Source: Candidatus Aminicenantes bacterium (GTDB lineage Bacteria > Acidobacteriota > Aminicenantia > Aminicenantales > UBA4085). Taken from it: a stretch of DNA of 64,000 bases. The notes below the pieces were generated by a model. The model was not told the DNA's origin, did no database searches, and worked only from the letters and a program-made list of their open reading frames with translations. Every line of letters begins with the position of its first letter. Position 1 is the first letter of the stretch. The stretch covers positions 139,487 through 203,486 of the forward strand of contig PLMN01000012.1 in assembly GCA_003141555.1 (NCBI GenBank). Reading direction: 5' to 3'. The translations under genes and the position numbers were made by a program. Shown here one piece after another: positions 16,611-48,934 of the stretch.

Positions 16611-17234
16611 ATGCTGGAGAAGATCCAGGAAGCCTTGATGGCCGGCCGGAAAGCCGAAGTGGAGACCCTGGTGGACCAGGCGCTGGCGTCGGGCATCCCG
16701 ACCCGCCGGATCCTGAACGAGGGGCTGATCGCGGGAATGGAAAAGCTCGGGGTGCTGTTTAAAAACAACGAAGTCTTCATCCCCGAGGTCCTGGTGGCGG
16801 CCCGGGCGATGAATGCCGGCCTGACCAAGCTCGAACCCAACCTGATCAAGGAGAAGATCGAGCCCAAGGGGCTGGTGGTGATCGGCACGGTCAAAGGCGA
16901 TCTCCACGACATCGGCAAGAACTTGGTCGCCATGATGCTCAAGGGCGCGGGCTACAAGATCGTGGACCTCGGGGCGGATGTTTCTTCTGAGAAGTTCGTC
17001 GACGCCCTCCGGGCGAACAAGGCCGACATCCTGGCCCTGTCCGCGCTCCTGACCACGACCATGGTCCAGATGAAGACCGTGATCCTGGCCGTCCAAGGCG
17101 CCGGCTTGGGCGTTCCGATCATCGTCGGCGGCGCCCCCCTGACCCAGGATTTCGCCGACCAGATCGGGGCCCGGGGATACGCTTCCGACGCCGCGAGCGC
17201 CGTGGACATCGTCCACCGCCTGCTGGCCCGCTGA
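16611..17234 (+). CDS. Cobalamin-binding (corrinoid) protein: B12-binding_2 cap plus B12-binding Rossmann domain
   Basis: DxHxxG motif (DLHDIGKN). A GxxxSxL...GG-type B12-binding fold follows. GAGGAG RBS. Confidence 0.8.
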   Translation: MLEKIQEALMAGRKAEVETLVDQALASGIPTRRILNEGLIAGMEKLGVLFKNNEVFIPEVLVAARAMNAGLTKLEPNLIKEKIEPKGLVVIGTVKGDLHDIGKNLVAMMLKGAGYKIVDLGADVSSEKFVDALRANKADILALSALLTTTMVQMKTVILAVQGAGLGVPIIVGGAPLTQDFADQIGARGYASDAASAVDIVHRLLAR

Positions 17235-29501: not shown

Positions 29502-30653
29502 ATGACATCGAAAGAGCGGATGGCCCGGGCGATGGCCGGCGATCGCCCCGACCGCGTCCCGGTGATGTGCCAGATGAGCATCGGGCACATGCTTCTCCAG
29601 ACGGGGATCCCGCCCCACGAATTCTGGTTCTCCGAGGAGCGCTTCCGCGAGGGCCTGCTCGCCCTGCGCCGGCGGTATGATTTCGACGGCATCCTGGTCA
29701 GCCTCCACGGCCATGCGCCCGATTGGGAGAAGGGGATCGCGAGGATGGCGCGGGAGGGGGACTTGACCGTCGTCCGCTGGGCGGACGGAGGGCGGACGGA
29801 ATTCCCTCCGGACGACCTGCCGCGGCATTATCCGGGCGTGCCCGCCGCGCGGCCCGATATCGCCCGCTTCGATCCCGACTGCGTCCCCGAACGGATCGAA
29901 TATATCCCGGTGTCCCCGGGGCTCGCGTTCCGGCTTGATCCCGACCACCGCCTCGATGCGTTCCGCAACGTCCGGGATGCCGCCGGAGCCGGGTTCTCGA
30001 TCCATGGCGAGGTCACCTCGCCCCTGGACTATTTCCTCGACCTCTTCGGCTTCGCCGAGGGCTTCCTGGCATTGGCCGACCATCCCGAGCGTTCGTTGGC
30101 CGTGCTCGAGAGGTTTGCCGCGGGTGTCGCCGATCTCGCCATCAAGCAGGCCCGGCTCGGCCTCGACGCGATCAAAATCTCGTCGCCCTATGCCGGCGCG
30201 GCCTTCATTTCGCCCGCGTTCTACCGGCGTTTCGTCCTGCCTTTCGAATCCCGGATCGCCCGGGCCGTGCGCGCCGCGGGGGTCCCGGTCTACACCCACA
30301 CCTGCGGCGCCGTCCGCGACCGGCTGGAGATGATGGCCGAGGCGGGCGTCTCCGGGATCGAGTGTCTGGATCCGCCCCCCCTCGGCAACGTGGAGCTCGA
30401 GGACGCCAAAGCCCGGCTCGGAGGGTCGGTCTTCATCAAGGGCAACATCGATCCCGTGAACACGCTCCTCTTCGGGGCGGCCGCGGCCGTGGAAGCCGAC
30501 GTCCGCCGCCGCCTCGCGGCCGGGATGCCGGGCGGGGGATTTATCCTCAGCACGGCCTGTTCCATCGCGCCCCGGACGCCGGCCGCGAACGTCGAGCTCC
30601 TGGCGCCGCTCGCCGCCGAGGCCGGGCGCTATCCCGCCGGCCCGTCCGCCTGA
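29502..30653 (+). CDS. Uroporphyrinogen decarboxylase (URO-D) family protein (MtaA/CmuA-like methyltransferase fold)
   Basis: URO-D TIM-barrel family features. 383 aa. GGAAGG RBS. Confidence 0.65.
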   Translation: MTSKERMARAMAGDRPDRVPVMCQMSIGHMLLQTGIPPHEFWFSEERFREGLLALRRRYDFDGILVSLHGHAPDWEKGIARMAREGDLTVVRWADGGRTEFPPDDLPRHYPGVPAARPDIARFDPDCVPERIEYIPVSPGLAFRLDPDHRLDAFRNVRDAAGAGFSIHGEVTSPLDYFLDLFGFAEGFLALADHPERSLAVLERFAAGVADLAIKQARLGLDAIKISSPYAGAAFISPAFYRRFVLPFESRIARAVRAAGVPVYTHTCGAVRDRLEMMAEAGVSGIECLDPPPLGNVELEDAKARLGGSVFIKGNIDPVNTLLFGAAAAVEADVRRRLAAGMPGGGFILSTACSIAPRTPAANVELLAPLAAEAGRYPAGPSA

Positions 30654-30695: not shown

Positions 30696-30724
30696 TTGAC
30701 TTTATCAAATTAATAGTATATATA
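30696..30724 (+). promoter_or_regulatory. Sigma70 consensus promoter (TTGACT-N17-TATATA) inside an AT-rich island
   Basis: Near-perfect hexamers with 17-nt spacing. Confidence 0.4.
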
Positions 30725-30843
30725 TATGCCATTCCTGTTGTGCTGGCTGGGCAGGACCCACCCTCCTTATTACCCCCTTTAATTTAATTCCCTGAAACAG
30801 CCAGCCTTTCCTCTCCTCCGGGGACCCTGGCCAATCACCGGAA

Positions 30844-30872
30844 TTGACAGGGGCCGGGGGCCGCATTATAAA
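30844..30872 (+). promoter_or_regulatory. Sigma70 consensus promoter (TTGACA-N17-TATAAA)
   Basis: It lies 25 nt upstream of the ATG at 30897. The spacer is the palindrome GGCCGGGGGCC. Confidence 0.45.
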
Positions 30873-30896
30873 GGTCTTGCAGGCTAAGGAGAACCA

Positions 30897-32297
30897 ATGG
30901 TCCAGCGCGGCGCCCCGAAAATCGATAAGAGGCGGACCCTGAGGGAGCCGCTCCGGTTCTCGCTCCTGTTCTGGCTCCAGGACCGCGAAGAGCTTCCCGC
31001 CGAGACGGCCACGACTCTCGACATCAGCCCCCGGAGCCTTGCATTCCGGAGTGCGAAGACGATTCCCATGGAAACGCGGCTCGTGCTCAGGCTGCCCAAC
31101 CCCTCGAGCGGGCGAAATCTCCAGGTCAAGGGCAGGGTCTGCCGCATCGAGAAGGACCCCGGGGCGGCCTCCACGGTCTACGGCGTGCAGTTTGAACAGA
31201 TCGACGGCCGCGACCTGGCCCTTCTGGAGCGGTTCGTCCAGGTCGGCAGCATCAATGCCATCTTGAGCGCCGCGGCTCGGAAGAAAGCGACTGACATCCA
31301 CCTCCTGGCCGGCGCGCCGCCCGTGTTCCGGATCGGCGGAGAGGTCGAGGTTGAGGACATGTTCCCGCTCGGCGCGACGGACCTCCAGGATATGATCGCC
31401 GTGATCCTGAGCCCACGTCAGAGGGAGAACTTCGAACGGGACATGGAGCTGGATTTTTCCTACCAGGCCCTCGACGGCCTGCGTTTTCGGGGCAATGTCC
31501 ATCGGGACAAGGGGAGCGTCGCGGCGTCTTTCCGGGCCATCCCCGCCTGCGTGCTGATGCCCTCCGAGCTGGGCCTGCCGCCCGCGGTCGAGGCGATGTC
31601 CGGGCTGAAGAAGGGCCTGATCCTGGTCGCCGGGCTTCCCGGGAGCGGCCGGTCGACCACCCTGGCGTCCCTCATTGACTCCATCAACCGCGGCTCCCGG
31701 CGCGTCGTCCTGAGCCTCGAGGACTCCATTGAATTCGTCCACCGTCCCGCCCGGGGGATCGTCATCCAACGCGAGATCGGCCTGGATACGCAATCGTATG
31801 AGGAAGGGCTCAGCCGCGCCATCCGCCAAGACGCGGATGTGATCGCCATAGGAGAGCTGCAGACCGCCGCCGAGCTGGGGTTGGTCCTCGGCGCGGCCGA
31901 GGCCGGCCGCCTCGTCCTGGCCGCCGTCCAGGCTTCGAATACGGTCGATGCCCTCGACAGCCTGATCGGCGTTCTCCCGGACGATCAGCGCGCCCGGGCT
32001 TCCGCGAGGCTGGCGGGCTGCCTCGTCGGCGCCGTCGCCCAGCTCCTGCTGCCGAAGAAGGGCGCCTCCGGCCGCGTCCTCGCGACCGAGGTCCTGGTCG
32101 CGACCCCCGAAATCCGGAACCTCATTCGGACTCGCTCCTTGGAGGGGATCCCGGCAATGATCGAGTCGAGCGCCGCGCGCGGCATGCGGACGATGGACAA
32201 GGCGCTGGCAGATCTTACCGAGCGGGGAGTGATCACTCGGGAAATGGCCCTGAGCTATGCTCGGGAACCCAGGAAACTCCAGGCCGGCGGCTCGTGA
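30897..32297 (+). CDS. PilZ domain fused to a PilT-like (type IV pilus retraction ATPase family) domain with degenerate catalytic motifs
   Basis: The N-terminal RRTLR...DISPRS region is PilZ-like. The PilT N-domain reads IHLLAGAPPVFRIGGEVE. Walker A is GLPGSGRSTT (K to R). The Asp box GEMRD is replaced by GELQT. The His box is replaced by GRLVLAAVQ. Confidence 0.7.
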   Translation: MVQRGAPKIDKRRTLREPLRFSLLFWLQDREELPAETATTLDISPRSLAFRSAKTIPMETRLVLRLPNPSSGRNLQVKGRVCRIEKDPGAASTVYGVQFEQIDGRDLALLERFVQVGSINAILSAAARKKATDIHLLAGAPPVFRIGGEVEVEDMFPLGATDLQDMIAVILSPRQRENFERDMELDFSYQALDGLRFRGNVHRDKGSVAASFRAIPACVLMPSELGLPPAVEAMSGLKKGLILVAGLPGSGRSTTLASLIDSINRGSRRVVLSLEDSIEFVHRPARGIVIQREIGLDTQSYEEGLSRAIRQDADVIAIGELQTAAELGLVLGAAEAGRLVLAAVQASNTVDALDSLIGVLPDDQRARASARLAGCLVGAVAQLLLPKKGASGRVLATEVLVATPEIRNLIRTRSLEGIPAMIESSAARGMRTMDKALADLTERGVITREMALSYAREPRKLQAGGS

Positions 32298-33337
32298 CCG
32301 TTTTCAAGAGAAGGCTGGCCAAGGCCGCCCTCGTCCTGATCTCCGCCGTCGCGGCGCTGGCGGCCGCCGAAATCGCAGTTCGGATCGCCTCTCCGCTTCG
32401 CTTCCGGCCGAGGGGGGACGCCCCGCTCTTCGCTTCGCGCACCTACCGGCTCTCGAAAAACAAGGAGCTGGTCTACGAGCTCAAGCCCAATACTCAGGCG
32501 ACCGCCAACGGGCTCGATTTCGCGGTCAATCCCTCAGGGTTTCGCGACCGGCGCTATCCCCGGGACGCGGGGGGGGACGCGCGGATCGTCTGCGTCGGGG
32601 ATTCGCTGACCTACGGCTGGCTCGTCCCGCTCCGGGCGACTTACCACAAGCAGCTCGAGCGGCTGATGAAAGCCGATGGCTTCGGCGTCGAGGTGATGGG
32701 GATGGGGGTGGTCGGCTACAATACGGTCCAGGAATATTTCGTCATCCGAGACAAGATCCCCCGCCTGAAGCCCGACCTCGTCCTGCTCCAGATGGGGCCG
32801 AATGATTTTGAGAGGACGGTCGGCATCAAGACCGTTCCCGAGACCGGCAAGCTGGTCCTCATCCCCTACAACGACCTCATCATCCCCTATATGACCGCGA
32901 AAACGGGGCTGACGAATCTCCTGATGCGGACGTCCCACCTGTTCCGGCTGGCCAACCTCGGGCTTTTCAACGTGAAGTTCAAGCGCTCGCCGGATTTCGT
33001 CCCGTCCGACGTGTTCCTGATGGGGGAGGACAAATCCTTCCTATATCTGAACAAGATTAAATCGTTCCTCGATGCCCAAGGCATTCCGTTCGCCGTGGCC
33101 GTTTTCCCCTACCGGAACGTCGGGACGGCGCCCTACCTCTACGCCGCGCTGACCCGCAGGATCCGCGACCGGCTCGAGCTCCTCCGGATCCCCTATCTCG
33201 ACCTCTATGACCGCCTGAACTCGGAGACGGCGAAGGACATCTGGATCGACGGCCTCCATTTCAACGAGGACGGCTATGCGATCATCGCCGCGGAGCTTCG
33301 GACGTTCATCGAGCCTCTTCTGGCGAAGAAAAAATAG
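32294..33337 (+). CDS. SGNH/GDSL family hydrolase
   Basis: GDS motif (VCVGDSLTYG). DxxH catalytic block (DGLHFNEDGY). GTG start overlaps the upstream stop (GTGA). Confidence 0.75.
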   Translation: MTVFKRRLAKAALVLISAVAALAAAEIAVRIASPLRFRPRGDAPLFASRTYRLSKNKELVYELKPNTQATANGLDFAVNPSGFRDRRYPRDAGGDARIVCVGDSLTYGWLVPLRATYHKQLERLMKADGFGVEVMGMGVVGYNTVQEYFVIRDKIPRLKPDLVLLQMGPNDFERTVGIKTVPETGKLVLIPYNDLIIPYMTAKTGLTNLLMRTSHLFRLANLGLFNVKFKRSPDFVPSDVFLMGEDKSFLYLNKIKSFLDAQGIPFAVAVFPYRNVGTAPYLYAALTRRIRDRLELLRIPYLDLYDRLNSETAKDIWIDGLHFNEDGYAIIAAELRTFIEPLLAKKK

Positions 33338-33387: not shown

Positions 33388-33416
33388 TTGACAGGCCCGC
33401 GGGGGCGGGCTATAGT
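33388..33416 (+). promoter_or_regulatory. Sigma70 consensus promoter (TTGACA-N17-TATAGT)
   Basis: It lies about 70 nt upstream of the ATG at 33490. Confidence 0.45.
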
Positions 33417-39293: not shown

Positions 39294-40634
39294 ATGAACG
39301 GACCATTGAACATCCTCGTCGTCGACGACGAAGCCAACATTCGGAGGACCCTGTCGGTCTATCTGGAAACCGAAGGGCACCGGGTCGTCGGCGTCGGCAA
39401 TTCCCGGGACGCCCTGGCCGAGGCGCGGCGCCGCTCGTTCGATCTCGCGTTCGTCGACCTGCGCCTCGGGACTTCGGACGGAATGGATCTCATCCCCGCC
39501 CTCCTGGCCGCGACGCCGTGGCTGAAGATCGTGGTCATCACCGCCTTCGCCTCGATCGACACGGCGGTCGAAGCCATCCGCCGCGGCGCGACCGATTACA
39601 TCCCCAAGCCGTTCACGCCGGCTCAGATCGGCCTGTCCGTCCGGAAGGCGTTCGAGATGAGGACGCTCGAGCAACGCGTGGCCACCCTCCAGGAAGATCT
39701 CGTCCGGACGAGGCCGGAGTTCGACTTCGCGAGCGCCCATCCCGCCATGAGGAAAGCCGTGGAGCTCGCCCGCCAGGCGGCGGCCTCGGAGGCGACGATC
39801 CTTCTCCGCGGAGAGAGTGGGACGGGAAAGACCGTCCTGGCCCGGGCGGTCCACGCCTGGAGCCCGCGGGCCGCGCGTCCGTTCGGCGTCGTGTCCTGCC
39901 CCGCCTTCTCGTCGGAGCTCCTGGAAAGCGAGCTTTTCGGCCATGCAAAAGGCGCATTCACGGGTGCGGTTCGGGAGAATCCCGGCCGCATCGCCGTCTG
40001 CGAAGGGGGCACGCTCTTCCTCGACGAGATCGGGGATCTGCCGCTCGGGCTCCAGCCGAAAATCCTGAGATTCGTCCAGGACCGGGGGTACGAGCGCGTG
40101 GGCGATCCTGTCCCGCGGCGAGCGGACGTGCGCCTGATTGCCGCCACGAACCTCGACCTCGAGCGCGCGATGAAAGAGGGCCGCTTCCGGGAGGACCTCT
40201 ACTACCGACTGGCCGTCATTCCCATCGATCTCCCTCCCTTGCGGGAACGGCCGGACGATGTGGAGGCTCTGGCCGGCCGGCTGCTGGCGTTTTATGCCCG
40301 GGCCAACCACCGGACCTTTGCCGGATTCTCGCCCGAGGCCTTGCGCGCGCTCCAGAGCTATTCCTGGCCGGGCAACATCCGGGAGCTCAGCAACGTCATC
40401 GAGCGGGCGGCCATCATGTGCCGGACCGACCGCATCGGGATCGAATTCCTCCCTGCCGGGCTGCAGCCCGGGGAGTCCGCACCGAAGGTCGGCGATAGGA
40501 TCTCCCTGGACAAAGTCGAGGAACAGCACATCCGCAAGGTTCTCGCTTCCGCGAAGTCCCTGCAGGAAGCCGCTGACATTCTTGGGATCGACCAAGCCAC
40601 CCTCTGGCGTCGCCGCAAAAAATACGATATCTGA
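39294..40634 (+). CDS. Sigma54-dependent Fis-family response regulator (NtrC-type: REC plus AAA+ plus HTH)
   Basis: REC domain (ILVVDDE...D54). Sigma54-interaction motifs GESGTGKT and GAFTGA. C-terminal Fis-type HTH. Confidence 0.9.
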   Translation: MNGPLNILVVDDEANIRRTLSVYLETEGHRVVGVGNSRDALAEARRRSFDLAFVDLRLGTSDGMDLIPALLAATPWLKIVVITAFASIDTAVEAIRRGATDYIPKPFTPAQIGLSVRKAFEMRTLEQRVATLQEDLVRTRPEFDFASAHPAMRKAVELARQAAASEATILLRGESGTGKTVLARAVHAWSPRAARPFGVVSCPAFSSELLESELFGHAKGAFTGAVRENPGRIAVCEGGTLFLDEIGDLPLGLQPKILRFVQDRGYERVGDPVPRRADVRLIAATNLDLERAMKEGRFREDLYYRLAVIPIDLPPLRERPDDVEALAGRLLAFYARANHRTFAGFSPEALRALQSYSWPGNIRELSNVIERAAIMCRTDRIGIEFLPAGLQPGESAPKVGDRISLDKVEEQHIRKVLASAKSLQEAADILGIDQATLWRRRKKYDI

Positions 40635-40822: not shown

Positions 40823-42673
40823 ATGAATATGCTTGGAATTCGTCAAAAAGTCATCCTTGGTTTTGCCGGCCTGTTAATCATCATCCTGGCCATCGGCGTC
40901 CAAAGCATCGTGACCCTGACCGGCTTGGGAGAATCGATCGATGTCATCTTGAGGGAAAACTACCTGAGCGTCATCGCCTGCCAGGAGATGAAGGAAGGTC
41001 TCGAGCGGATCGACAGCGGCCTGCTTTTCACTCTCCTCGGCGACCGGGCCCAGGGCGAAGATCTCATCCTCAAAAACGAAGCCGTGTTCGAGAAGGCCCT
41101 CCAGACCGAGCTGAACAACATCACCGTGCCGGGGGAAGGCAAGACGGCCGAAAGGCTCCGGGGCCTTTATGCCACGTACCGGGACACGCTGCCCCAGGCC
41201 GTCGCCGCGGATCGGCCCCTGGCCCTGCGCCACGATGCTTATTTTTCATCGCTCTTCCCTCTGTTCGGTCAAATCAAGGCGGCGGCCGAAGAGATCCTCC
41301 AGATGAACCAGCGGAACATGAGCGAGGCGAACGACCGGGCGCGCCTGAGCGCCTCCCAGGCCCGAAGCGGCATGTATCTCCTCCTCGGCTTGTGCACCCT
41401 CATCGCCATCGCGTTCATGCATTTCACCGGCCGCTGGATCCTGAGGCCCGTGAAGCGTTTGACCCTCTCCGCGGACGAGATCCGGCGGGGAAACCTCGAT
41501 CTCGTCGTCCCCAGCGATTCTCATGACGAGATTGGAACTCTGGCGGAATCGTTCAATGCGATGGCCGCCAGCCTGCGCGAACTCCGCCGGACCGACCAGG
41601 CTCGTCTCCTCCGCGTCCAGCGCGCGACACAGGAGGCCTTTGACCGGCTCCCCGATGCCGTCGCGGTCGTCGACCTCGAAGGCCGCGTCGAGGTGTCGAC
41701 CGAATCGGCCAAGACCGTCTTCGGCCTCCGGCCGGGCGCGCCGATCTTCGATTTGCCGTACGGGCTGGCCGATTACTTCAAGGAAGCGCTGGCGGAAGGC
41801 CGGCCCGTTCCGGCCGAATCCCAGGCGCCGATGATCCAACGGTTCGTGGGCGGAGAGGAGCGCTTCTTCCGCCCGGAGGCGGTTCCCATCCGGGACGCCG
41901 ACCGGCAGCCGACCGGAGCGATTTTCGTTCTCCACGACGTCACCCAGCTCCGCCAGCAAAACGAGCTGAAGACGAGCGTCATCCGCGCGGTTTCCCACCA
42001 GCTCAAGACGCCCATGACGTCCATCCGGATGGCAATCCACGTCCTCCTCGAGGAAAAGATCGGAAGCTTGAGCGAGAAGCAGGCCGAAGTCCTCTTGGCA
42101 GCGCGCGAAGACAGCGACCGGCTCCAGGAAATCTTGAGCAATCTCCTCGATATCGGCCGAACGGAGTCGGGCAAGGCCGAGGTCTACAACTATCAGTCCT
42201 TCTCCCCGCAGTCGCTGGTTATGGACGCCTTGGAACCGTTCCGGCGGACGGCCCAGGAGAAGGGCATCGCCCTGGGAGTCGAACTCCGCGGCAACCTTCC
42301 CGACGTCTGGACGGACCGGACCCGCACCAGTCACGTTTTCGCCAACCTCCTCTCCAACGCCATCCGCCACACGCCGGCGGGCGGGCGCCTTTTCCTCGCG
42401 GCAAAAGAGGAAGAGGACGTCGTCCGGTTCGTGGTTTCCGATACGGGGGAAGGTATCCCGGCCGAGTTCGTGGGCCATGTTTTCGAGCCGCTGTTCCGCG
42501 TCCCCGGCCGCGATTCCGCTGGCGGCCCGGGGCTCGGCCTAGCCACCGCCAAGGAGATCGTCGAGGCCCAGGGAGGGACGATCTCCGTCGAAAGCCGGGA
42601 GGGGAAGGGGACGACGTTCTCGTTCACCCTTCGCCGGACGGATCGGATCGATTCCAAGGAGGTTTCCCAATGA
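40823..42673 (+). CDS. Sensor histidine kinase (periplasmic sensor, HAMP, PAS-like, HisKA, HATPase_c)
   Basis: Two TM segments flank a ~150-aa loop. H-box AVSHQLKTPMTSI. N, G1 and G2 boxes (LLSNAIRHT, DTGEGI, GGPGLGLA). An alternative start at 40829 has better RBS spacing. Confidence 0.85.
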   Translation: MNMLGIRQKVILGFAGLLIIILAIGVQSIVTLTGLGESIDVILRENYLSVIACQEMKEGLERIDSGLLFTLLGDRAQGEDLILKNEAVFEKALQTELNNITVPGEGKTAERLRGLYATYRDTLPQAVAADRPLALRHDAYFSSLFPLFGQIKAAAEEILQMNQRNMSEANDRARLSASQARSGMYLLLGLCTLIAIAFMHFTGRWILRPVKRLTLSADEIRRGNLDLVVPSDSHDEIGTLAESFNAMAASLRELRRTDQARLLRVQRATQEAFDRLPDAVAVVDLEGRVEVSTESAKTVFGLRPGAPIFDLPYGLADYFKEALAEGRPVPAESQAPMIQRFVGGEERFFRPEAVPIRDADRQPTGAIFVLHDVTQLRQQNELKTSVIRAVSHQLKTPMTSIRMAIHVLLEEKIGSLSEKQAEVLLAAREDSDRLQEILSNLLDIGRTESGKAEVYNYQSFSPQSLVMDALEPFRRTAQEKGIALGVELRGNLPDVWTDRTRTSHVFANLLSNAIRHTPAGGRLFLAAKEEEDVVRFVVSDTGEGIPAEFVGHVFEPLFRVPGRDSAGGPGLGLATAKEIVEAQGGTISVESREGKGTTFSFTLRRTDRIDSKEVSQ

Positions 42674-42857: not shown

Positions 42858-44585
42858 ATGAATATCCCCGGATGGATCCAACTGGTTCTCTTCCTCGGCG
42901 TCCTCTGCCTGCTGACCAAGCCGGTCGGCCTGCTCCTCAGCCGGGTCCTGGATCCCGAGGGCCGGACGCCGTTCGATCCCGTGCTCAAGCCCATCGAACG
43001 GCTCCTGTATCGTCTCCTCGGCGTCGATCCCAAAGCGGAACAGACCTGGAAACAATACGCCTTTTCGCTCTTCGCCTTCAGCCTGGTCGGCTTGCTGTTC
43101 ACCTATGCCGTTCTCCGCCTTCAACACATCCTGCCCTTGAACCCCCAGAAGCTCGGGCCGGTCCCGCCCGACCTGGCCTTCAACACGGCCGTCAGCTTCT
43201 CGACCAACACCAACTGGCAGAACTATGCGGGCGAGAGCACGCTCTCCTATTTTTCGCAGATGGTGGGGCTCGCTTTCCATAATTTCGCTTCGGCGGCCGC
43301 GGGCATCGCCGTGGCGGCGGCCCTCGTCCGCGGCATCGCCCGGCGTTCGGCAAAAACGCTCGGCTCCTTCTGGGCGGATCTCGTCCGGGTGAACCTCTAC
43401 CTCCTCCTCCCGATCTGCCTCGTCCTATCGCTCGTCCTGGTGTCGCAGGGCGTCATCCAGAATTTCCAGCCCGCCCGCCAGGCGGCCCTGATCGAGCCGG
43501 CCGGGACTGTCGCGACGCAGACGATCCCCCAGGGCCCGGCCGCCTCGCAGATCGCGATCAAGATGCTGGGCACGAACGGGGGCGGGTTCTTCAACGCCAA
43601 TGCCGCCCATCCCTATGAAAACCCGACGCCGTTCTCGAATTTCCTCCAGATGCTGGCCATCTTCCTCATCCCGGCCGGCCTGACCTATTACCTGGGGACG
43701 AGCGTCAAGAACCGAAGGCACGGCTGGGCGGTCTGGACGGCGATGGCCGTCCTGTTCCTGGCCGGGGTTTTCGTCTGCTGGCGGGCTGAAAGCGTCGGCA
43801 ATCCCCGCCTGACGGCTCTTGGCCTGGATTCGGCCGGCGGCAATATGGAAGGCAAGGAAGTCCGGTTCGGCATTTTCAATTCGAGCCTCTTCGCCACGGT
43901 CACGACCGACGCTTCCTGCGGCGCGGTCAACGCCATGCACGACTCGTTCACGCCCCTCGGCGGATTGGTCCCCCTGTTCAACATGCAGCTCGGCGAGGTG
44001 GTATTCGGGGGGGTGGGCGCGGGATTGTATGGGATTCTCGTCTTCGTCGTCCTGGCGGTGTTCCTGACCGGCCTGATGGTCGGGCGGACGCCGGAATACC
44101 TGGGCAAGAAGATCGAGGGTTATGACGTGAAAGTCGCCGTCCTGACCCTGCTCATCCTGATCTTCAGCATCCTCGGCTTCGCCGCTTGGGGCGCGGTCAG
44201 CCGGCCGGGGTTGGCCGGCCTTGGGAATAAAGGCCCCCACGGTCTGAGTGAGATCCTCTATGCATTCTCCTCGGCGACCGGCAACAACGGCAGCGCCTTC
44301 GGCGGATTGAGCGGGAACTCGCCCTGGTACAATGTGACCTTGGGACTGGCCATGTTCTTAGGCCGGTTTTTCATGATCGTTCCGGTCCTGGCCTTGGCCG
44401 GCAGCCTCGGCCGGAAAAAGCTCCTCCCTCCGAGTGAAGCGAGCTTTCCGGTGGGCGGGACGATGTTCATCATCATCCTGATCGGCACGATCGTCATCGT
44501 CGGGGCGCTGACCTACCTTCCCGCTCTGGCCCTCGGCCCGATCGTCGAGCATTTCACGATGTCCGGGTCGGCTCTCGTCTATTAG
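42858..44585 (+). CDS. kdpA: Potassium-transporting ATPase subunit KdpA
   Basis: KdpA N-terminus (WIQLVLFLGVL...) with a multi-TM K+ channel-like fold. 575 aa. Confidence 0.9.
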   Translation: MNIPGWIQLVLFLGVLCLLTKPVGLLLSRVLDPEGRTPFDPVLKPIERLLYRLLGVDPKAEQTWKQYAFSLFAFSLVGLLFTYAVLRLQHILPLNPQKLGPVPPDLAFNTAVSFSTNTNWQNYAGESTLSYFSQMVGLAFHNFASAAAGIAVAAALVRGIARRSAKTLGSFWADLVRVNLYLLLPICLVLSLVLVSQGVIQNFQPARQAALIEPAGTVATQTIPQGPAASQIAIKMLGTNGGGFFNANAAHPYENPTPFSNFLQMLAIFLIPAGLTYYLGTSVKNRRHGWAVWTAMAVLFLAGVFVCWRAESVGNPRLTALGLDSAGGNMEGKEVRFGIFNSSLFATVTTDASCGAVNAMHDSFTPLGGLVPLFNMQLGEVVFGGVGAGLYGILVFVVLAVFLTGLMVGRTPEYLGKKIEGYDVKVAVLTLLILIFSILGFAAWGAVSRPGLAGLGNKGPHGLSEILYAFSSATGNNGSAFGGLSGNSPWYNVTLGLAMFLGRFFMIVPVLALAGSLGRKKLLPPSEASFPVGGTMFIIILIGTIVIVGALTYLPALALGPIVEHFTMSGSALVY

Positions 44586-44594
44586 GGGACGAAT

Positions 44595-46616
44595 ATGATC
44601 GCCAAAACTCATTCGCTGTTCGATCGCCGGATCATCGGCCCGGCCGTGATCGATTCCTTCCGGAAGCTGAATCCGGTCTTTCTCCTCAAGAATCCGGTCA
44701 TCTTCGTGACCGAAGTCGGCGCGGCCCTCTGCACCCTGGCCGTGGCGTTCCGCGGGGCCGGCGAAGCGCCGGGATTCATCTTCCAGATCGCCCTCTGGCT
44801 CTGGTTCACCGTGCTCTTCGCCAATTTCGCCGAAGCCATGGCCGAGGGCCGGGGCAAGGCCCAGGCCGACGAGCTCCGCAAGGCTCGGACGCGGACCCAG
44901 GCCAGTTTGCTCCAGGCCGACGGTTCGGTCCGCATCGTCGCCGCGGAGGAGCTGCGAAAGGGCGACTTCATCGTCGTCGTCGCCCGGGAAGTCATTCCCG
45001 CGGACGGCGAAATTGTCGAAGGTGCGGCTACGGTGGATGAATCGGCCATCACCGGGGAGTCCGCCCCTGTCATCCGGGAAGCGGGCGGCGACCGGAGCGC
45101 CGTGACCGGCGGCACCCGGGTGCTGTCCGATCGGATCAAGGTCCGGGTCACGGCCAACCCCGGCGAGAGTTTCCTTGATCGGATGATCGGGCTGGTCGAG
45201 GGCGCCCACCGCCAGAGAACGCCGAACGAAATCGCCCTGACCATCCTGCTCGCGGCGCTCACGATCATCTTTCTGGTCGTGGTCATCAGTCTTCGGCCCT
45301 TCGGAACCTATTCGGGCGTGTCCTTGACCGTGACGGTTCTCGTGGCCCTCCTTGTCTGTCTCATTCCGACGACCATCGGCGGCCTGCTCAACGCCATCGG
45401 GATCGCGGGCATTGACCGGATGGTCCAGAAAAACGTCCTGGCCATGAGCGGCCGGGCCGTCGAGGCGGCCGGTGACGTCGACGTCCTTCTCCTGGATAAA
45501 ACCGGGACGATCACCCTGGGCGATCGCCAGGCATCGGCCTTCATCCCAGCGCCTGAGGTCACCGTCGAGGACCTGGCCAACGCGGCCCAGCTCGCCTCCC
45601 TGGCCGACGAGACGCCCGAGGGGCGGAGCATCGTCGTCCTGGCCAAAAAATACGGCTTCCGCGGCCGGACCATTTCCGAAATGCCCGGGGCCGTGTTCAT
45701 TCCCTTCTCGGCCCAGACGCGGATGAGCGGCCTGGATTTCGAGGGGCGCCGCATCCGCAAAGGCGCGGCCGTCGCCATCCAGGGATTCACCGGGAAGCCG
45801 ATCGCCGTTGAAGTCCAGGACGCGGTCAGCTACATCTCCCTTTCGGGCGGGACTCCGCTCCTCGTCGCGGACGGTTCGAATGTTCTAGGGGCCATCCATT
45901 TAAAAGACATCGTCAAGGGGGGCCTTCGCGACCGCTTCGAGCGATTCCGGGCCATGGGCATCAAGACGGTCATGATCACCGGGGACAACCGCCTGACCGC
46001 GGCCGCCATCGCCCGCGAGGCGGGCGTCGACGACTTCGTGGCCGAGGCCAAGCCCGAGGACAAGCTCACTTTGATCCGGCGGGAGCAGACGGCCGGCCAC
46101 CTCGTGGCCATGACCGGCGACGGGACGAACGACGCGCCGGCCCTTGCCCAGGCGGACGTCGGGATGGCCATGAACACCGGAACGCAAGCGGCCAAAGAGG
46201 CGGGCAACATGGTCGACCTCGACTCCAATCCCACCAAGCTGATCGAGGTCGTGGAGATCGGAAAACAAATGCTCATCACCCGCGGGGCACTGACGACGTT
46301 CAGCATCGCCAACGATGTGGCCAAGTATTTCGCCATCATCCCCGCCCTGCTGGTCGGCGTCTTCCCGGTCATCGCCCCGCTCAACATCATGGGCCTCCGT
46401 TCCCCGCAGAGCGCGATCCTGAGCGCGGTCATCTTCAATGCGCTCATCATCGTCGCCCTGATTCCCCTGGCCCTCCGTGGGGTGAAGTTCCGGCCTTTGG
46501 GGGCGGCCGCGCTTCTCCGGCGGAACCTCTTGATCTACGGCCTCGGCGGGCTCATCGCCCCCTTCCCGGGCATCAAGATCGTGGATATCATCGTGAACGC
46601 TCTCCATCTCGTGTGA
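44595..46616 (+). CDS. kdpB: Potassium-transporting P-type ATPase subunit KdpB
   Basis: DKTGTIT phosphorylation motif, [18 protein letters not shown] hinge and TGES motif. Confidence 0.9.
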
Positions 46617-46638
46617 GCGGGCGAAAGGCGGACGAACT

Positions 46639-47232
46639 ATGAAATCCTGGATTCGAGAGATTCGGACATCGCTCCGGGCAACGGCGGCCCTGGTGGTGCT
46701 TCTTTGCGGGCTTTATCCCCTGGCCGTCTGGGGGCCGGCCCAGATCCTCTTCCCGGCGAAGGCCAACGGCTCGCTTCTCGTTCGCGACGGAAAAGTCGTC
46801 GGCTCCGAGCTCATCGGCCAGGGATTCACGGGCGCGGGGTATTTCCATCCCCGTCCTTCGGCCGCGGGCGGTGGATACGACGCCCTGGCCTCGGGGGGCA
46901 GCAACCTGGGACCGTTGTCGAAAGACTTAATCGAAAGCGTCCGGGGGCGCGCGGCCGCCTATCGCGCCGAGAACGGTCTGGAGCCCGGCGCGGCGGTCCC
47001 GGCCGATGCCGTGACCGCTTCGGGCAGCGGACTCGACCCCCATATCTCGCTTCAAAACGCTGGCCTCCAGACTCCGCGCGTTGCCCGGGCCCGGGGCTTG
47101 ACCGAAGCCGCGGTCCGGGAGCTGATCGGATCATTGGCCGAAGGCCGCGACCTGGGGATCTTCGGCGAGGCGAGGGTGAATGTCTTGAAGCTCAATCTCA
47201 CCTTGGATGAAAAACGCGATGGCGGACGATAG
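46639..47232 (+). CDS. kdpC: Potassium-transporting ATPase subunit KdpC
   Basis: Single N-terminal TM. KdpC signature (GSGLDPHIS). 197 aa. Confidence 0.85.
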   Translation: MKSWIREIRTSLRATAALVVLLCGLYPLAVWGPAQILFPAKANGSLLVRDGKVVGSELIGQGFTGAGYFHPRPSAAGGGYDALASGGSNLGPLSKDLIESVRGRAAAYRAENGLEPGAAVPADAVTASGSGLDPHISLQNAGLQTPRVARARGLTEAAVRELIGSLAEGRDLGIFGEARVNVLKLNLTLDEKRDGGR

Positions 47233-48934
47233 GGCCAACGAGTTCCTGCAGCTGATCCGACAATCGCAGCGCGGACGTCTGAAGATCTATCTCGGCTACA
47301 GCGCCGGCGTGGGGAAGACCTACCAGATGCTCCAGGAGGGCCACCGCCTTAAGAGCGACGGCATCGATGTCGTGATCGGCCTGCTCGAGACGCATGGCCG
47401 GACGGCGATCGCCGAGCTGGCCAAGGGACTCGAAGTCGTACCGCGGCGCCGCCGGGATTATCGGGGGATCGCCGTCGAGGAAATGGACGTGGATGCCGTC
47501 CTAGCCCGAAAACCGCAGGTCGCCCTGATCGACGAGCTGGCCCACACCAACGCTCCCGGCAGCCGGAACCCGAAGCGCTATGAGGACGTGCTGGACGTGC
47601 TGGCCGCGGGAATCCACGTCATCACCACCTTGAACGTCCAGCACCTGGAAAGCCTTTACAACATCGTGGAGAATGCCGTCGGGGTCAAGGTGCGGGAACG
47701 GATCCCGGATTCGGTGCTGGTCGAGGCCGACCAGATCGTCGACGTGGATCTGGCGACCGAGGATCTCCGCAAGCGCCTGGAGGACGGCAAGATCTATCCG
47801 CAGGAGCGCATCGCGACCGCTTTGAGCAATTTTTTCATCCCTTCCAACCTCGAGAAGCTGCGAGAACTGACCTTGCGCGAGCTGGCCGCCCAGATCGATT
47901 TCCGCCGGAGGGAAGCCAAGAGCGAGGCGGGCGAGACCGAAGGGGACCAGGTGATGGTCTGCCTGAGCTCGCATGGCCCGAACAGCGAAAAGCTCCTCCG
48001 GTACGGTTCGCGTCTCGCCGGAAAGCTCAACCGCAACTGGTACGCGGTCTATGTCCAGACCCCTTCCGAAGAGGCCACGGTCATCGACGCGAAAGTCCAG
48101 CGCATGCTCTCGGATACGCTGACCTTGGCCAAACAGCTAGGCGCGCTCGTGTTCACCTACAAGGGGGAGAATATCGCGGATACGATCCTCCGCTTCGCCC
48201 GGGAATACCGCGTTGGCCACATCGTCGTCGGCAAGTCGGTCCCCAAGCCGGTTTGGAAGAGGATCGGCCGGAACAAGGCCGTCGTGGAGGACCTCATTGC
48301 TGAGGCGAGGGGGGTGACGGTGATCGTCGTCGATCCCTGCCCGGCCGTCGCGCCGGCCCTCGCCCGGCCCCGGCCGGAGGATGACCGGCGGGAAGAGGGG
48401 TTCGGGAAGGCGGACGCCGAAGGGCCGGAGGCAGCCCCCTCGGCGCCCATCGTGCGCGATCTGCTCAGCCCTTGGCTTTCCCCGCGGCGCATCGTCCTAT
48501 GGGGAGTCCCCGTCGCCAAAGAACAGGTCCTTCGGACGCTTGCCGAGACGGTCAAAAACGAAGACGGCGTTTCCGACCCGGAGAAGCTCTACGCGGACAT
48601 CCTGATCCGGGAGGAGCAGGGATCCACGTTCTTCAACGAGGGCGTCGCTTTCCCTCACGTCCGGGTCGAAGACCTGGCCGCTCCGGTCGTAGCCCTGGGA
48701 TTGACGCGCGGGGGCGTGGCGGATATCTCGACCGACAAGCCGATCGAGCTCGTCTTCCTCATCCTTTCTCCCGCCGGGAACCCTCCCCTTCAAGTGAAGC
48801 TGCTGGGGGCGGCGAGCCGGGCCGCCCAGAGCCGTCCTCTTCTTCAAGCCCTGCGCTCGGCGGAGACGCCCGACGAAGTCCTGCGGGCCATCGTGAACTG
48901 GGAAGCGTCGATTCCGCGCTCCCTGGGCGCGTAA
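47207..48934 (+). CDS. KdpD N-terminal sensor domain plus Usp domain fused to a PTS EIIA(Ntr)/PtsN-like domain, with no TM or histidine-kinase region
   Basis: The KdpD-N P-loop region reads LKIYLGYSAGVGKTYQM...ALIDELAHTN. The Usp domain reads VMVCLSSHGPNSEKL.... The C-terminal EGVAFPHVRVE...ELVFLILSPAGNPPLQVKLL... matches the PTS_EIIA_2 His-site pattern. Confidence 0.8.
   Translation: MKNAMADDRANEFLQLIRQSQRGRLKIYLGYSAGVGKTYQMLQEGHRLKSDGIDVVIGLLETHGRTAIAELAKGLEVVPRRRRDYRGIAVEEMDVDAVLARKPQVALIDELAHTNAPGSRNPKRYEDVLDVLAAGIHVITTLNVQHLESLYNIVENAVGVKVRERIPDSVLVEADQIVDVDLATEDLRKRLEDGKIYPQERIATALSNFFIPSNLEKLRELTLRELAAQIDFRRREAKSEAGETEGDQVMVCLSSHGPNSEKLLRYGSRLAGKLNRNWYAVYVQTPSEEATVIDAKVQRMLSDTLTLAKQLGALVFTYKGENIADTILRFAREYRVGHIVVGKSVPKPVWKRIGRNKAVVEDLIAEARGVTVIVVDPCPAVAPALARPRPEDDRREEGFGKADAEGPEAAPSAPIVRDLLSPWLSPRRIVLWGVPVAKEQVLRTLAETVKNEDGVSDPEKLYADILIREEQGSTFFNEGVAFPHVRVEDLAAPVVALGLTRGGVADISTDKPIELVFLILSPAGNPPLQVKLLGAASRAAQSRPLLQALRSAETPDEVLRAIVNWEASIPRSLGA

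Follow-up and report, generated by a model that had tools for sequence, protein, structure and literature searches.

A PilZ–PilT fusion protein with a degenerate ATPase site in Candidatus Aminicenantes, a candidate c-di-GMP-responsive regulatory scaffold

The window (the whole stretch of 64,000 nucleotides that was analysed) carries an open reading frame for a protein of 466 residues in which a PilZ domain is fused to a PilT-type body, and a protein-identical copy (P0001) is present in public assemblies. The coordinates of this reading frame, and all the motif strings that had been quoted in a preliminary description made from the letters alone, were found exactly as given there, and each of the quoted residues could be located. 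The fusion gene lies between two genes on the same strand:

29502 to 30653, plus strand: URO-D/MtaA-like gene (PF01208, E = 3.5e-37), a conserved upstream neighbour
30897 to 32297, plus strand: PilZ-PilT fusion ORF
32294 to 33337, plus strand: SGNH/GDSL hydrolase gene (PF13472, E = 1.3e-14), whose start overlaps the stop of the fusion gene (GTGA)

The fusion protein is divided as follows, with strands and helix taken from an AF2 model:

30927 to 31238, plus strand: PilZ domain, residues 11–114 (PF07238, E = 1.5e-11), modelled as six strands and a C-terminal helix (104–114) with pLDDT of about 77–89
31251 to 32270, plus strand: PilT-family body, residues 119–458, with an N-domain (about 119–225) and an ATPase core (about 226–458)

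The two-part architecture had been proposed in the preliminary description and is confirmed by an HMM scan, in which PF07238 scores 44.9 bits (gathering score 22.5), PF00437 (T2SSE) 70.4 bits with E = 1.4e-19 (threshold 24.9), and TIGR01420 (pilT_fam) 330.8 bits (cut-off 319.1), the last over residues 119–458 and profile positions 2–341 of 343. With phmmer against the PDB the protein matches PilT of G. metallireducens at 1.4e-70. The AF2 model, which is of the monomer, has a pLDDT of 84.6 and the two-domain PilT fold, and its top Foldseek matches in the PDB are all PilT, with target-normalised TM-scores of 0.85–0.93. The Pfam scan gave no match to MshEN (PF05157) at E ≤ 0.1. A known anti-phage defence protein was considered and ruled out, the PADLOC models giving only a weak P-loop match to the fusion protein (mad8, 16 bits, E = 0.0015) and none to its two neighbours.

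Of the two sequence motifs of c-di-GMP-binding PilZ domains, the first is present and the second is seen as a variant:

30930 to 30944, plus strand: PilZ motif 1, RxxxR, read as RRTLR (residues 12–16)
31020 to 31037, plus strand: PilZ motif 2, a variant of (D/N)xSxxG, read as DISPRS (residues 42–47)

The protein probably responds to c-di-GMP. All 43 collected members of the fusion family (described below) match PF07238, and R12, R16 and S44 are each conserved in at least 90% of them, the two arginines being invariant in the 17 closest sequences and, together with the motif serine, in the degenerate clade to which the window protein belongs. The Asp and Ser of motif 2 are present in the window protein, and its last residue is Ser, as in clade 1 and several active-type members, while most other fusions have Gly. 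This serine in place of the consensus glycine would suit an adaptor PilZ domain that makes protein-protein contacts without binding c-di-GMP, so that the fusion would be a constitutive regulator like the PilZ proteins of Pseudomonas and Xanthomonas that act on PilB, and the closest solved PilZ structure, YpfA, is also only a marginal match (E = 0.9). Non-binding PilZ proteins that act on type IV pilus ATPases are known (see PMC8389850). We consider such a role improbable, given the conservation of RxxxR and the motif serine, the complete (D/N)xSxxG of clade 2, and a Pfam score that is twice the gathering threshold. The RxxxR segment is moreover a flexible N-terminal arm in the model (pLDDT <50), as it is in canonical PilZ domains. 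No homologues were retrieved when the PilZ part was used as the query on its own.

The residues of the PilT body were aligned with those of solved PilTs and of 75 canonical PilTs as reference, and the motifs read as follows:

31632 to 31658, plus strand: degenerate Walker A, GLPGSGRST (residues 246–254), with Lys252 changed to Arg, and also T245A and T248P
31716 to 31733, plus strand: Asp box, LEDSIE (residues 274–279), with E275, D276 and E279 intact and Pro277 changed to Ser (canonical EDPIE)
31836 to 31865, plus strand: atypical Walker B and catalytic Glu, DVIAIGELQT, with E320 kept, R322 changed to Gln and D323 to Thr
31899 to 31934, plus strand: degenerate His box, EAGRLVLAAVQA, with H338 changed to Arg and H345 to Gln, and T343, L344 and T346 also changed
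32109 to 32132, plus strand: AIRNLIRE-like motif, EIRNLIRT, identical at 6 of 8 positions, with I406, R407, L409, I410 and R411 kept

The roles of Walker A, Asp box, catalytic Glu and His box have been published; one histidine of the His box is in contact with the gamma-phosphate, and mutating the motifs disrupts both ATPase activity and function. The AIRNLIRE motif lies at the PilT-PilC interface in an AF3 model (preprint). The Walker A lysine is 100% conserved in the 75 canonical PilTs and is Arg in the window protein, and both histidines of the canonical His box (GHLxxxTLHT) are missing from the corresponding segment, GRLVLAAVQ (residues 337–345); the alignment thus upholds the Lys to Arg and the His to Arg and Gln substitutions of the preliminary description, and the N-terminal region, as stated above, does match the PilZ model. 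That description had also reported an Asp box changed from GEMRD to GELQT. The substitution is real, in that GELQT (residues 319–323) retains G319 and E320 and has lost an Arg (322) and an Asp (323) that are 100% conserved in canonical PilT (n = 75), but GEMRD is the Walker B and catalytic-Glu segment, and the true Asp box, EDSIE, is intact. Compared with the 75 PilTs the changes are clustered, at T245, T248 and K252, at R322, D323 and E325, at T336, H338 and T343–T346, and in the next helix, whereas R196, R198, N200, R213, E275, E279, Q291–E293, R310, D312, G319, E320, E335, G337, E398 and R411 are kept.

The key losses that had led to the term dead ATPase scaffold are therefore present, but since the Asp box, the catalytic Glu, the P-loop glycines and Ser/Thr and the N-domain arginines are intact, the site is better called partly degenerate, and the protein may still bind nucleotide. 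A change of the Walker A lysine to arginine can by itself leave nucleotide binding intact, so that the word dead is drawn from four concurrent losses taken together. The same intact residues, with a TIGR01420 score above the cut-off, are what would be expected of a working, c-di-GMP-regulated retraction ATPase in which Arg stands in for the Walker A Lys. This is very improbable in view of the absence of both His-box histidines, the loss of the invariant Arg at position 322, which by alignment is the position of R206 in V. cholerae PilT, and the finding that generic P-loop models barely match the protein; in addition, sister proteins have Thr or Val at the lysine position or Gln at that of the catalytic Glu.

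The preliminary description did not recognise the architecture as one that had been characterised. Indeed we found no paper describing a PilZ-PilT fusion, either for the window protein or for the wider family, but the protein is not a one-off, as the collected fusions comprise at least 43 sequences in at least 27 clusters at 50% identity, from Aminicenantes and Omnitrophota. A scan of a genome collection with the window protein matched only canonical PilTs. For RlmN, from which a taxonomic placement was derived, the closest named relatives are 62–66% identical and belong to Aminicenantales/Aminicenantes/Acidobacteriota. The Walker A Lys is intact in most of the 43 fusions, and the novelty is thus a degenerate subclade within an uncharacterised family and not a lone protein. 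In a neighbour-joining tree the fusions do not form one clade but two pure fusion groups and one singleton. The degenerate clade is monophyletic, has a long stem and branches from within fusions whose Walker A is intact, and the window protein descends from PilZ-PilT relatives with an intact active site.

Within the subclade the Walker A Lys is replaced by Arg, Thr or Val (Thr or Val in clade 2), the second His by Gln, Glu, Ala, Pro or Leu, both histidines are lost throughout, and in one member, L037, the catalytic Glu is Gln; this variation at catalytic positions indicates a relaxed constraint on catalysis. The gene is nevertheless under purifying selection, which acts on the PilZ domain, the N-domain and the core. 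Between the window and L001 dN/dS is 0.23 overall (PilZ 0.27, N-domain 0.20, core 0.22) and so falls in the interval of 0.11–0.24 found for the neighbouring genes, and between the window and clade 2 it is 0.32–0.34. Hypervariable catalytic residues in combination with purifying selection are the signature of a retained pseudo-enzyme. A decaying relic without function might be suspected from the eroding catalytic residues and from the fusion gene being the fastest-evolving in its syntenic block, but is extremely improbable, since the reading frame is intact and of full length in 9 sequences of 55–100% identity, more than 140 residues are invariant across 8 clustered members, dN/dS stays at 0.2–0.34 across every domain, and start codon, Shine-Dalgarno sequence, promoter-like sites and downstream overlap are all conserved.

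As the preliminary description had noted, there are no pilus genes nearby. None of the 43 ORFs scanned across the 64-kb window matches a pilus-related Pfam family, has a pilin signal motif or encodes a T2SS component or pilin; a looser version of the signal motif (G-F-T-L-I-E type) yielded two irrelevant matches only, and the regions flanking the other loci of the degenerate clade likewise contain no pilus, T2SS or pilin genes. One active-type member adjoins a PilB-like MshEN-T2SSE gene and a PilZ gene; as the fusions are mostly orphans and this one lies beside a PilB-like gene, the absence of pilus genes is weak evidence. What linkage is conserved is only to the exported SGNH esterase and to the URO-D/MtaA-like gene, with no pointer to pili. 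The URO-D/MtaA-like protein is below all NCBIfam cut-offs and is best matched by the MtaA/CmuA-type methyltransferase family. Its gene is upstream of the fusion in the window, L001, L003 and L032, and also adjoins P0139 of a separate Lys to Thr lineage, and in L037 none was found within 1.1 kb upstream. The stop/start overlap with the SGNH gene is likewise real, its 4 nt being kept in 5/5 degenerate-clade loci as either GTGA or ATGA. These five loci are one syntenic lineage, and the linkage therefore counts as a single evolutionary event.

At its N-terminus the SGNH protein carries a signal or anchor sequence, and its catalytic blocks (GDS, GxND and DxxH) are intact. Among the products of the flanking genes are two GH38 mannosidases, of which one bears a signal peptide, as well as an arylsulfotransferase and a sugar transporter. 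Esterases of the GDSL type belong to the classical cargo of the T2SS. It is thus possible, although on the unlikely side, that the scaffold has been exapted to a role outside pili, together with the SGNH esterase and secreted glycan-degrading enzymes, in which the protein, as a c-di-GMP sensor, would govern how the esterase is exported (e.g. by a T2SS-like route), its activity, or modification of envelope or extracellular glycans. The overlap that persists despite the change between GTGA and ATGA, the absence of an SGNH neighbour beside the active-type relatives, and the faster evolution of the fusion and SGNH genes compared with the flanking URO-D and GH38 genes all point in that direction. 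On the other hand the linkage in a single syntenic lineage may be inherited gene order, the N-terminal sequence of the esterase suggests that once exported it would leave little or no cytoplasmic part to contact, T2SS genes are missing from the 64-kb window, and the conserved AIRNLIRE core and N-domain motifs argue for a PilT-type partner.

The region upstream of the fusion gene contains several conserved elements:

30696 to 30724, plus strand: promoter-like site P1 (TTGACT, 17 nt, TATATA), found by eye, with both hexamers in 5/5 loci
30736 to 30805, plus strand: near-invariant non-coding block
30742 to 30749 and 30798 to 30805, plus strand: helix arms of the block, GCTGGCTG and CAGCCAGC, enclosing a pyrimidine-rich loop
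30761 to 30768, plus strand: loop segment CCCTCCTT, complementary to the downstream Shine-Dalgarno sequence
30844 to 30872, plus strand: promoter-like site P2 (TTGACA, 17 nt, TATAAA), read from the sequence, with TTGACAGG invariant in 5 loci
30886 to 30891, plus strand: Shine-Dalgarno sequence AAGGAG, 5 nt before the ATG, with GGAG in 5/5 loci

P1 and P2 are putative promoters. The block is present in a single copy, and between the window and L003 or L032 it is 86–87% identical, compared with 53–57% for the intergenic region between SGNH and GH38 that served as control and with a coding dS of about 1. A hairpin of −19 kcal/mol is predicted for the block, weakly better than shuffled sequences (z = −1.4), and the block is too invariant for covariation, while the fold of a long leader is no better than shuffled (z = +0.5). 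Neither the window nor the upstream region is matched by any Rfam family, and hence no c-di-GMP riboswitch is present there. A gene for a small peptide in the block was also considered, since the block shows a 3-nt indel that preserves the frame and a single synonymous substitution, and was rejected because neither a start codon nor a Shine-Dalgarno sequence is conserved in it. Apart from the fusion protein, the block is thus itself a candidate regulatory RNA of a new kind.

The loss of key residues for ATP splitting, in a protein that selection nevertheless retains, suggests that it is probably a signal-controlled brake or adaptor and not a motor. We tentatively favour, at a little less than even confidence, a non-hydrolysing, PilT-like regulatory scaffold that would serve, gated by c-di-GMP, as a brake, plug or adaptor in the dynamics of a pilus, or of a related type IV filament or secretion system. 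With its hydrolysis site disabled, the protein would have been kept as a non-catalytic scaffold in which a PilT-like assembly persists, perhaps with nucleotide held without turnover. The partner surface would be the same as that of PilT and would engage the type IV pilus platform, and the PilZ domains, located at the ring's N-terminal face, could couple this engagement to c-di-GMP, with filament dynamics being braked, plugged or adapted as the outcome instead of driven. Expression would be together with the exported SGNH esterase, behind a conserved leader carrying an anti-Shine-Dalgarno-like sequence.

A wider proposal, which is doubtful when taken as a whole, would make the PilZ-PilT fusions a family of c-di-GMP effectors that has so far gone unrecognised and that works directly on the retraction side of type IV filament machines. 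In one Aminicenantes-like branch the protein would then have turned into a naturally ATPase-dead, nucleotide-locked ring, sitting on the platform protein as a plug or adaptor gated by c-di-GMP. It would be translated together with an exported SGNH esterase, and its expression would be controlled by a highly conserved leader RNA, not described before, that mimics the anti-Shine-Dalgarno end of 16S rRNA.

Known control of type IV pili by c-di-GMP is exerted on the extension ATPase, by way of an MshEN domain or of PilZ and FimX adaptors. Direct fusion of PilZ to a PilT body would bring the input to the retraction side, in a way hitherto undescribed. With PilT and PilU (TIGR01420; PilT4 of G. metallireducens, 6OJX, and PilT of P. 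aeruginosa, 3JVV) residues 119–458 are homologous, at 35–38% identity in structure-based alignments, and share the two-domain fold, the Asp box, the catalytic Glu, the RFRxN arginines of the N-domain and the IRNLIR core. The fusion differs from them in the added N-terminal PilZ domain, in the replacement of the Walker A Lys, both His and the Arg-Asp after the catalytic Glu, in evolving much faster than its neighbouring genes, and in the lack of pilus genes in the vicinity (64-kb window). The extension ATPases of the MshE and PilB type with a c-di-GMP-binding MshEN domain (for background, PMC5013675 and PMC7096442) are similar in having a c-di-GMP receptor fused N-terminally to a hexameric ATPase of the T2SSE family, but the receptor of the fusion is a PilZ beta-barrel, its body is of the retraction (PilT) type and its ATPase site is degenerate. 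As in the PilZ-FimX-PilB systems of Xanthomonas and Pseudomonas and in YcgR and MotI, a PilZ protein would be tied to a motility motor, although in those systems PilZ is a protein of its own that works in trans, with PilB or the flagellar motor as its target, and here it is covalently fused to a PilT-type body. YcgR and MotI are non-enzyme PilZ proteins that act as c-di-GMP-gated brakes or clutches on the motor.

Precedents for the loss of activity are in V. cholerae, where ATPase-dead PilT K136A docks on the pilus machine in a platform-dependent manner and bridges PilU, and where the natural PilT variant R206S (strain MO10) leads to hyper-piliation and altered MSHA pili, resembling inactivated PilT. 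If the favoured reading is correct, a naturally fixed dead PilT with a sensor would show that the adaptor role is used in nature and would add a pseudo-enzyme to the secretion-ATPase superfamily. Within the fusion family, 'active' and 'dead' members are available as pairs that can be compared directly by biochemistry. The window protein naturally carries both kinds of change, but whereas K136A is a laboratory mutant and R206S a single-strain variant of a bona fide pilT, the fusion represents a paralogue lineage of its own, which is under selection, has gained a sensor domain and shows further losses in the His box.

The window protein is a PilZ-PilT fusion whose hydrolysis site has lost key residues and is probably disabled. 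Selection has maintained it, and it descends from active-type fusions, i.e. fusions with an intact Walker A motif. Its open reading frame is confirmed, with a GC3 of 0.86, comparable to that of the neighbouring genes, and is located as follows.

29502–30653, upstream of the fusion gene: URO-D/MtaA-like gene, scoring under all curated cut-offs
Immediately 5' of the fusion gene, + strand: promoter-like TTGACA-17-TATAAA
5 nt ahead of the fusion-gene ATG, + strand: Shine-Dalgarno sequence AAGGAG
30897–32297, + strand: PilZ-PilT fusion, 466 aa
32294–33337, downstream, with a GTGA overlap with the fusion gene: SGNH/GDSL hydrolase

Both domains named in the preliminary description were found by the HMM scan it proposed. 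Pfam places PilZ at residues 11–114 (E=1.5e-11, 44.9 bits with a gathering score of 22.5) and also matches T2SSE (E=1.4e-19), and the NCBIfam PilT/PilU model spans residues 119–458 end to end with 330.8 bits, above its cut-off of 319.1 bits. The closest solved structures are PilTs, that of Geobacter metallireducens (6OJX, 1.4e-70) and those of Aquifex, Pseudomonas and Thermus. In an AlphaFold2 model (pLDDT 84.6, input alignment of 17 family members) the PilZ part is a six-stranded barrel with a helix, and the remainder is a PilT-like body that superposes on PilT structures with a target-normalised TM of 0.85–0.93.

Phosphates are bound by Walker A, magnesium is coordinated by the Asp-box Glu, water is activated by the Glu following Walker B, and a His-box histidine touches the gamma-phosphate and couples adjacent subunits; mutations in Walker A, the Asp box, the Walker B Glu and the His box disrupt ATPase activity and function (PMC5424180; PMC6762196). 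The motifs were compared by residue-level alignment to solved PilTs and by an unbiased comparison with 75 canonical PilTs.

Catalytic motifs of canonical PilT and of the window protein
Walker A: GPTGSGKST, in the window GLPGSGRST; Lys252 to Arg, T245 and T248 changed too
Asp box: EDPIE, in the window EDSIE; every acidic residue retained
Walker B and catalytic Glu: GEMRD, in the window GELQT; Glu320 retained, invariant Arg and Asp lost
His box: GHLvxxTLHT, in the window GRLVLAAVQA; both His lost

The alignment, which had been proposed as a check, upholds the substitutions: Lys to Arg in GSGRST, and the two histidines to Arg and Gln. The change of GEMRD to GELQT is equally real but had been assigned to the Asp box; GEMRD is Walker B with the catalytic Glu, and the Asp box proper keeps its acidic residues. 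Also retained are the arginines of the N-domain RFRGN and FR motifs, the QRE motif, R310/D312, E335/G337, E398 and R411. An ATPase that is still active would fit the retained catalytic Glu, Asp box, and P-loop glycines and Ser/Thr, but is unlikely with the Walker A Lys, both His-box histidines and the Arg-Asp after the catalytic Glu all lost. The Arg322 position corresponds to R206 of V. cholerae PilT, where the natural R206S change makes cells hyper-piliated and alters their MSHA pili, effects that appear similar to those of inactivated PilT. By family HMM and by fold the window protein qualifies as a PilT, but two defining catalytic features, the Walker A Lys and an intact His box, are missing, and it is therefore classed as PilT-derived and not as a PilT motor.

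The PilZ+T2SSE architecture is shared by about 17 clusters in a word-indexed search, and a complete HMMER scan of 1.84 billion cluster representatives, with a family profile built from those clusters, gave about 27 full-length fusions in the best 150 matches, compared with about 12,000 PilT-like clusters at E≤1e-30. In all, 43 fusion sequences were collected in the proposed survey of the architecture, each of them matched by both Pfam models. Members with a named source are from MAGs of Candidatus Aminicenantes and Candidatus Omnitrophota, and their annotation reads simply "PilT/PilU family type 4a pilus ATPase". The architecture had not been recognised as characterised, and in our search of the openly accessible literature no paper found mentions a PilZ-PilT fusion, and looking for PilZ combined with T2SSE brought up MshEN papers only; neither PilT nor ATPases are mentioned in the PilZ domain survey of Galperin and Chou. 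The window protein sits inside an uncharacterised family.

In most fusions the Walker A Lys and the catalytic Glu are present and the His box is mostly intact, although many lack the second histidine. In the tree, the window protein falls within a long-stemmed monophyletic subclade that consists of P0001–P0008 and the homologue on contig L037 (55–100% identity). Its members have Arg, Thr or Val at the Walker A Lys position, Arg without exception at the first His-box histidine, and Gln, Glu, Ala, Pro or Leu at the second; such hypervariability at PilT-invariant positions is the pattern expected after catalysis is abandoned. The nearest additional homologue (L037, 1109–2509; 79% identical) combines the Lys to Arg and His-box losses with a catalytic Glu to Gln change (DVIALGQLRT), one more step of active-site erosion within the clade. 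The Arg338 and Arg371 replacements are fixed in 8 of 8 clustered subclade members, indicating that the pocket may be remodelled, not simply decayed.

Outside the window, two tandem PilT bodies per polypeptide are found in P0012–P0017, P0132–P0137, P0143 and P0156 (~708–745 aa, one 1024 aa; some annotated as Myxococcota PilT). Walker A is present in both halves of most of them. In most, a canonical His-box pattern is matched by the C-terminal half only, so the N-terminal half may be partly degenerate.

Between the window and L001, another degenerate-clade locus, dN/dS of the fusion gene is 0.23 (PilZ 0.27, N-domain 0.20, ATPase core 0.22), within the range of nine neighbouring genes (0.11–0.24). 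Against clade 2, the subclade members with Thr or Val for the Walker A Lys, it is 0.32–0.34, compared with 0.14–0.15 for the URO-D and GH38 genes and 0.25 for the SGNH gene, and the gene is 57% identical to its L003 counterpart, the flanking genes being 69–84% identical. Every domain is under purifying selection, yet this is the fastest-evolving gene of the block. A decaying relic was considered and is unlikely, being countered by purifying selection in all domains.

The PilZ elements read earlier, RxxxR and DISPRS, are present. RxxxR (R12, R16) and the second-motif Ser are invariant in the closest 17 fusions and at least 90% conserved across the 43. That DISPRS ends in Ser instead of the consensus Gly, which is present in clade 2 and most other fusions, could point to a PilZ domain that has lost c-di-GMP binding; this is unlikely given the conservation of RxxxR and the motif Ser, and binding of c-di-GMP is plausible. 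The RxxxR arm is disordered in the AlphaFold2 model (pLDDT <50), as expected of an unliganded PilZ.

Conservation of the 244-nt stretch 5' of the fusion gene exceeds that of the gene, and the stretch contains the following elements.

30696–30724: promoter-like TTGACT-17-TATATA
30736–30805, after the promoter-like site: near-invariant block of ~70 nt

Together they are found in the window (30696–30805), L001 (9796–9910), L003 (1337–1450), L032 (603–717) and L037 (897–1009). The block is 86–87% identical between genomes with a coding dS of ~1, compared with 53–57% for the control SGNH-to-GH38 intergenic region. Its predicted closing helix is formed by GCTGGCTG and CAGCCAGC around a pyrimidine-rich loop holding CCCTCCTT, a complement of the downstream Shine-Dalgarno sequence that recalls the 16S rRNA 3' end. 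The predicted hairpin is only marginally better than shuffled sequence, and covariation cannot be assessed since the block is near-invariant. It is single-copy in all sequences examined, has no match in Rfam, and is a candidate new element that may act as a leader RNA masking the ribosome-binding site, as a small RNA or as a site of protein binding.

The GTGA overlap with the SGNH hydrolase gene noticed earlier is confirmed, and the 4-nt overlap is kept as GTGA or ATGA in five of five degenerate-clade loci, with the URO-D gene in four; a URO-D gene also adjoins P0139, from a distinct fusion lineage with Walker A Lys to Thr. As the loci are syntenic and from related genomes (RlmN ~81–85% identical), the fusion/SGNH linkage represents one evolutionary event. 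By RlmN, whose closest named relatives are 62–66% identical, the window belongs to an uncultured lineage of Aminicenantes-like Acidobacteriota. The SGNH hydrolase carries a signal or anchor sequence at its N-terminus, and its GDS, GxND and DxxH blocks are intact. Genes for two GH38 mannosidases, LysE, an Omp85-family protein, an arylsulfotransferase and a sugar transporter lie farther out. A Pfam scan of 43 ORFs from across the window gave no pilus- or type II secretion-related gene, and the pilin signal motif was not found within the window. The earlier remark that pilus genes are missing nearby thus holds but is weak as evidence, since orphan status is the rule in the family: active-type fusions have assorted housekeeping neighbours, and P0154 and P0226, further members with degenerate His boxes, are orphans as well. 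One member, on L004, adjoins a PilB-like MshEN-T2SSE gene and a single-domain PilZ gene.

Some further features were observed. The long GH38 ORF, which was listed with TTG 33388 as its start codon, probably begins at ATG 33490 (MKSAFRL..., signal-peptide-like), where the conserved N-terminus of its orthologues begins, and 33388–33416 is a near-consensus promoter-like TTGACA-17-TATAGT. The URO-D gene product is an MtaA/CmuA-like family protein; an MtgC/MtbC-like corrinoid-binding protein (16611–17234, below cut-offs) is encoded 12 kb away, and a B12-binding radical SAM protein farther along (60628–62436). After kdpA-kdpB-kdpC (42858–47232) follows a KdpD-like protein (47207–48934, + strand) with the KdpD N-terminal sensor domain, a Usp-like region and a PTS EIIA-2 domain, without histidine-kinase domains; an NtrC-type response regulator (39294–40634) and a HAMP-PAS histidine kinase (40823–42673) lie directly 5' of kdpA. 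On L039, a 196-kb metagenomic contig, a PAS-PAS-HD_5 protein with an HD-GYP-type domain (773–2122, − strand), possibly a c-di-GMP phosphodiesterase, is encoded ~4 kb from an active-type PilZ-PilT gene.

Function and ligand binding of the window protein are what we infer from these data. Lys to Arg and Glu to Gln are classic substitutions that allow binding but not hydrolysis. The N-domain interface motifs, P-loop backbone, Asp box and the IRNLIR core of the AIRNLIRE motif are kept, suggesting that a PilT-like ring probably still forms and may hold nucleotide, perhaps without turnover. In V. cholerae the K136A variant of PilT, which is ATPase-dead, remains docked on the pilus machine in a way that depends on the platform, and it bridges PilU; this supports the feasibility of a non-catalytic docking role. 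AIRNLIRE lies at the PilT-PilC interface in an AF3 model from a preprint. Six PilZ domains would occupy the N-terminal face of the dead ring, which would serve type IV filament platforms as a brake, plug or adaptor responsive to c-di-GMP; this is our preferred, though tentative, reading. The main rival, which we regard as somewhat less likely, is that the scaffold now acts in a non-pilus process with the exported esterase and the nearby secreted glycan-degrading enzymes. On every point open to sequence analysis the preliminary interpretation is partly supported: a second-messenger receptor on a dead retraction-ATPase scaffold agrees with the hydrolysis-site losses, the PilT fold and purifying selection, but the active site is only partly degenerate, with the Asp box and Glu320 kept.

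The window protein shares its design logic with MshE and PilB, in which a receptor for c-di-GMP is joined to a T2SSE ATPase, but has another receptor fold, a retraction-type body and, by Pfam scan, no MshEN domain, while it resembles YcgR and MotI solely in the idea of a PilZ-controlled brake.
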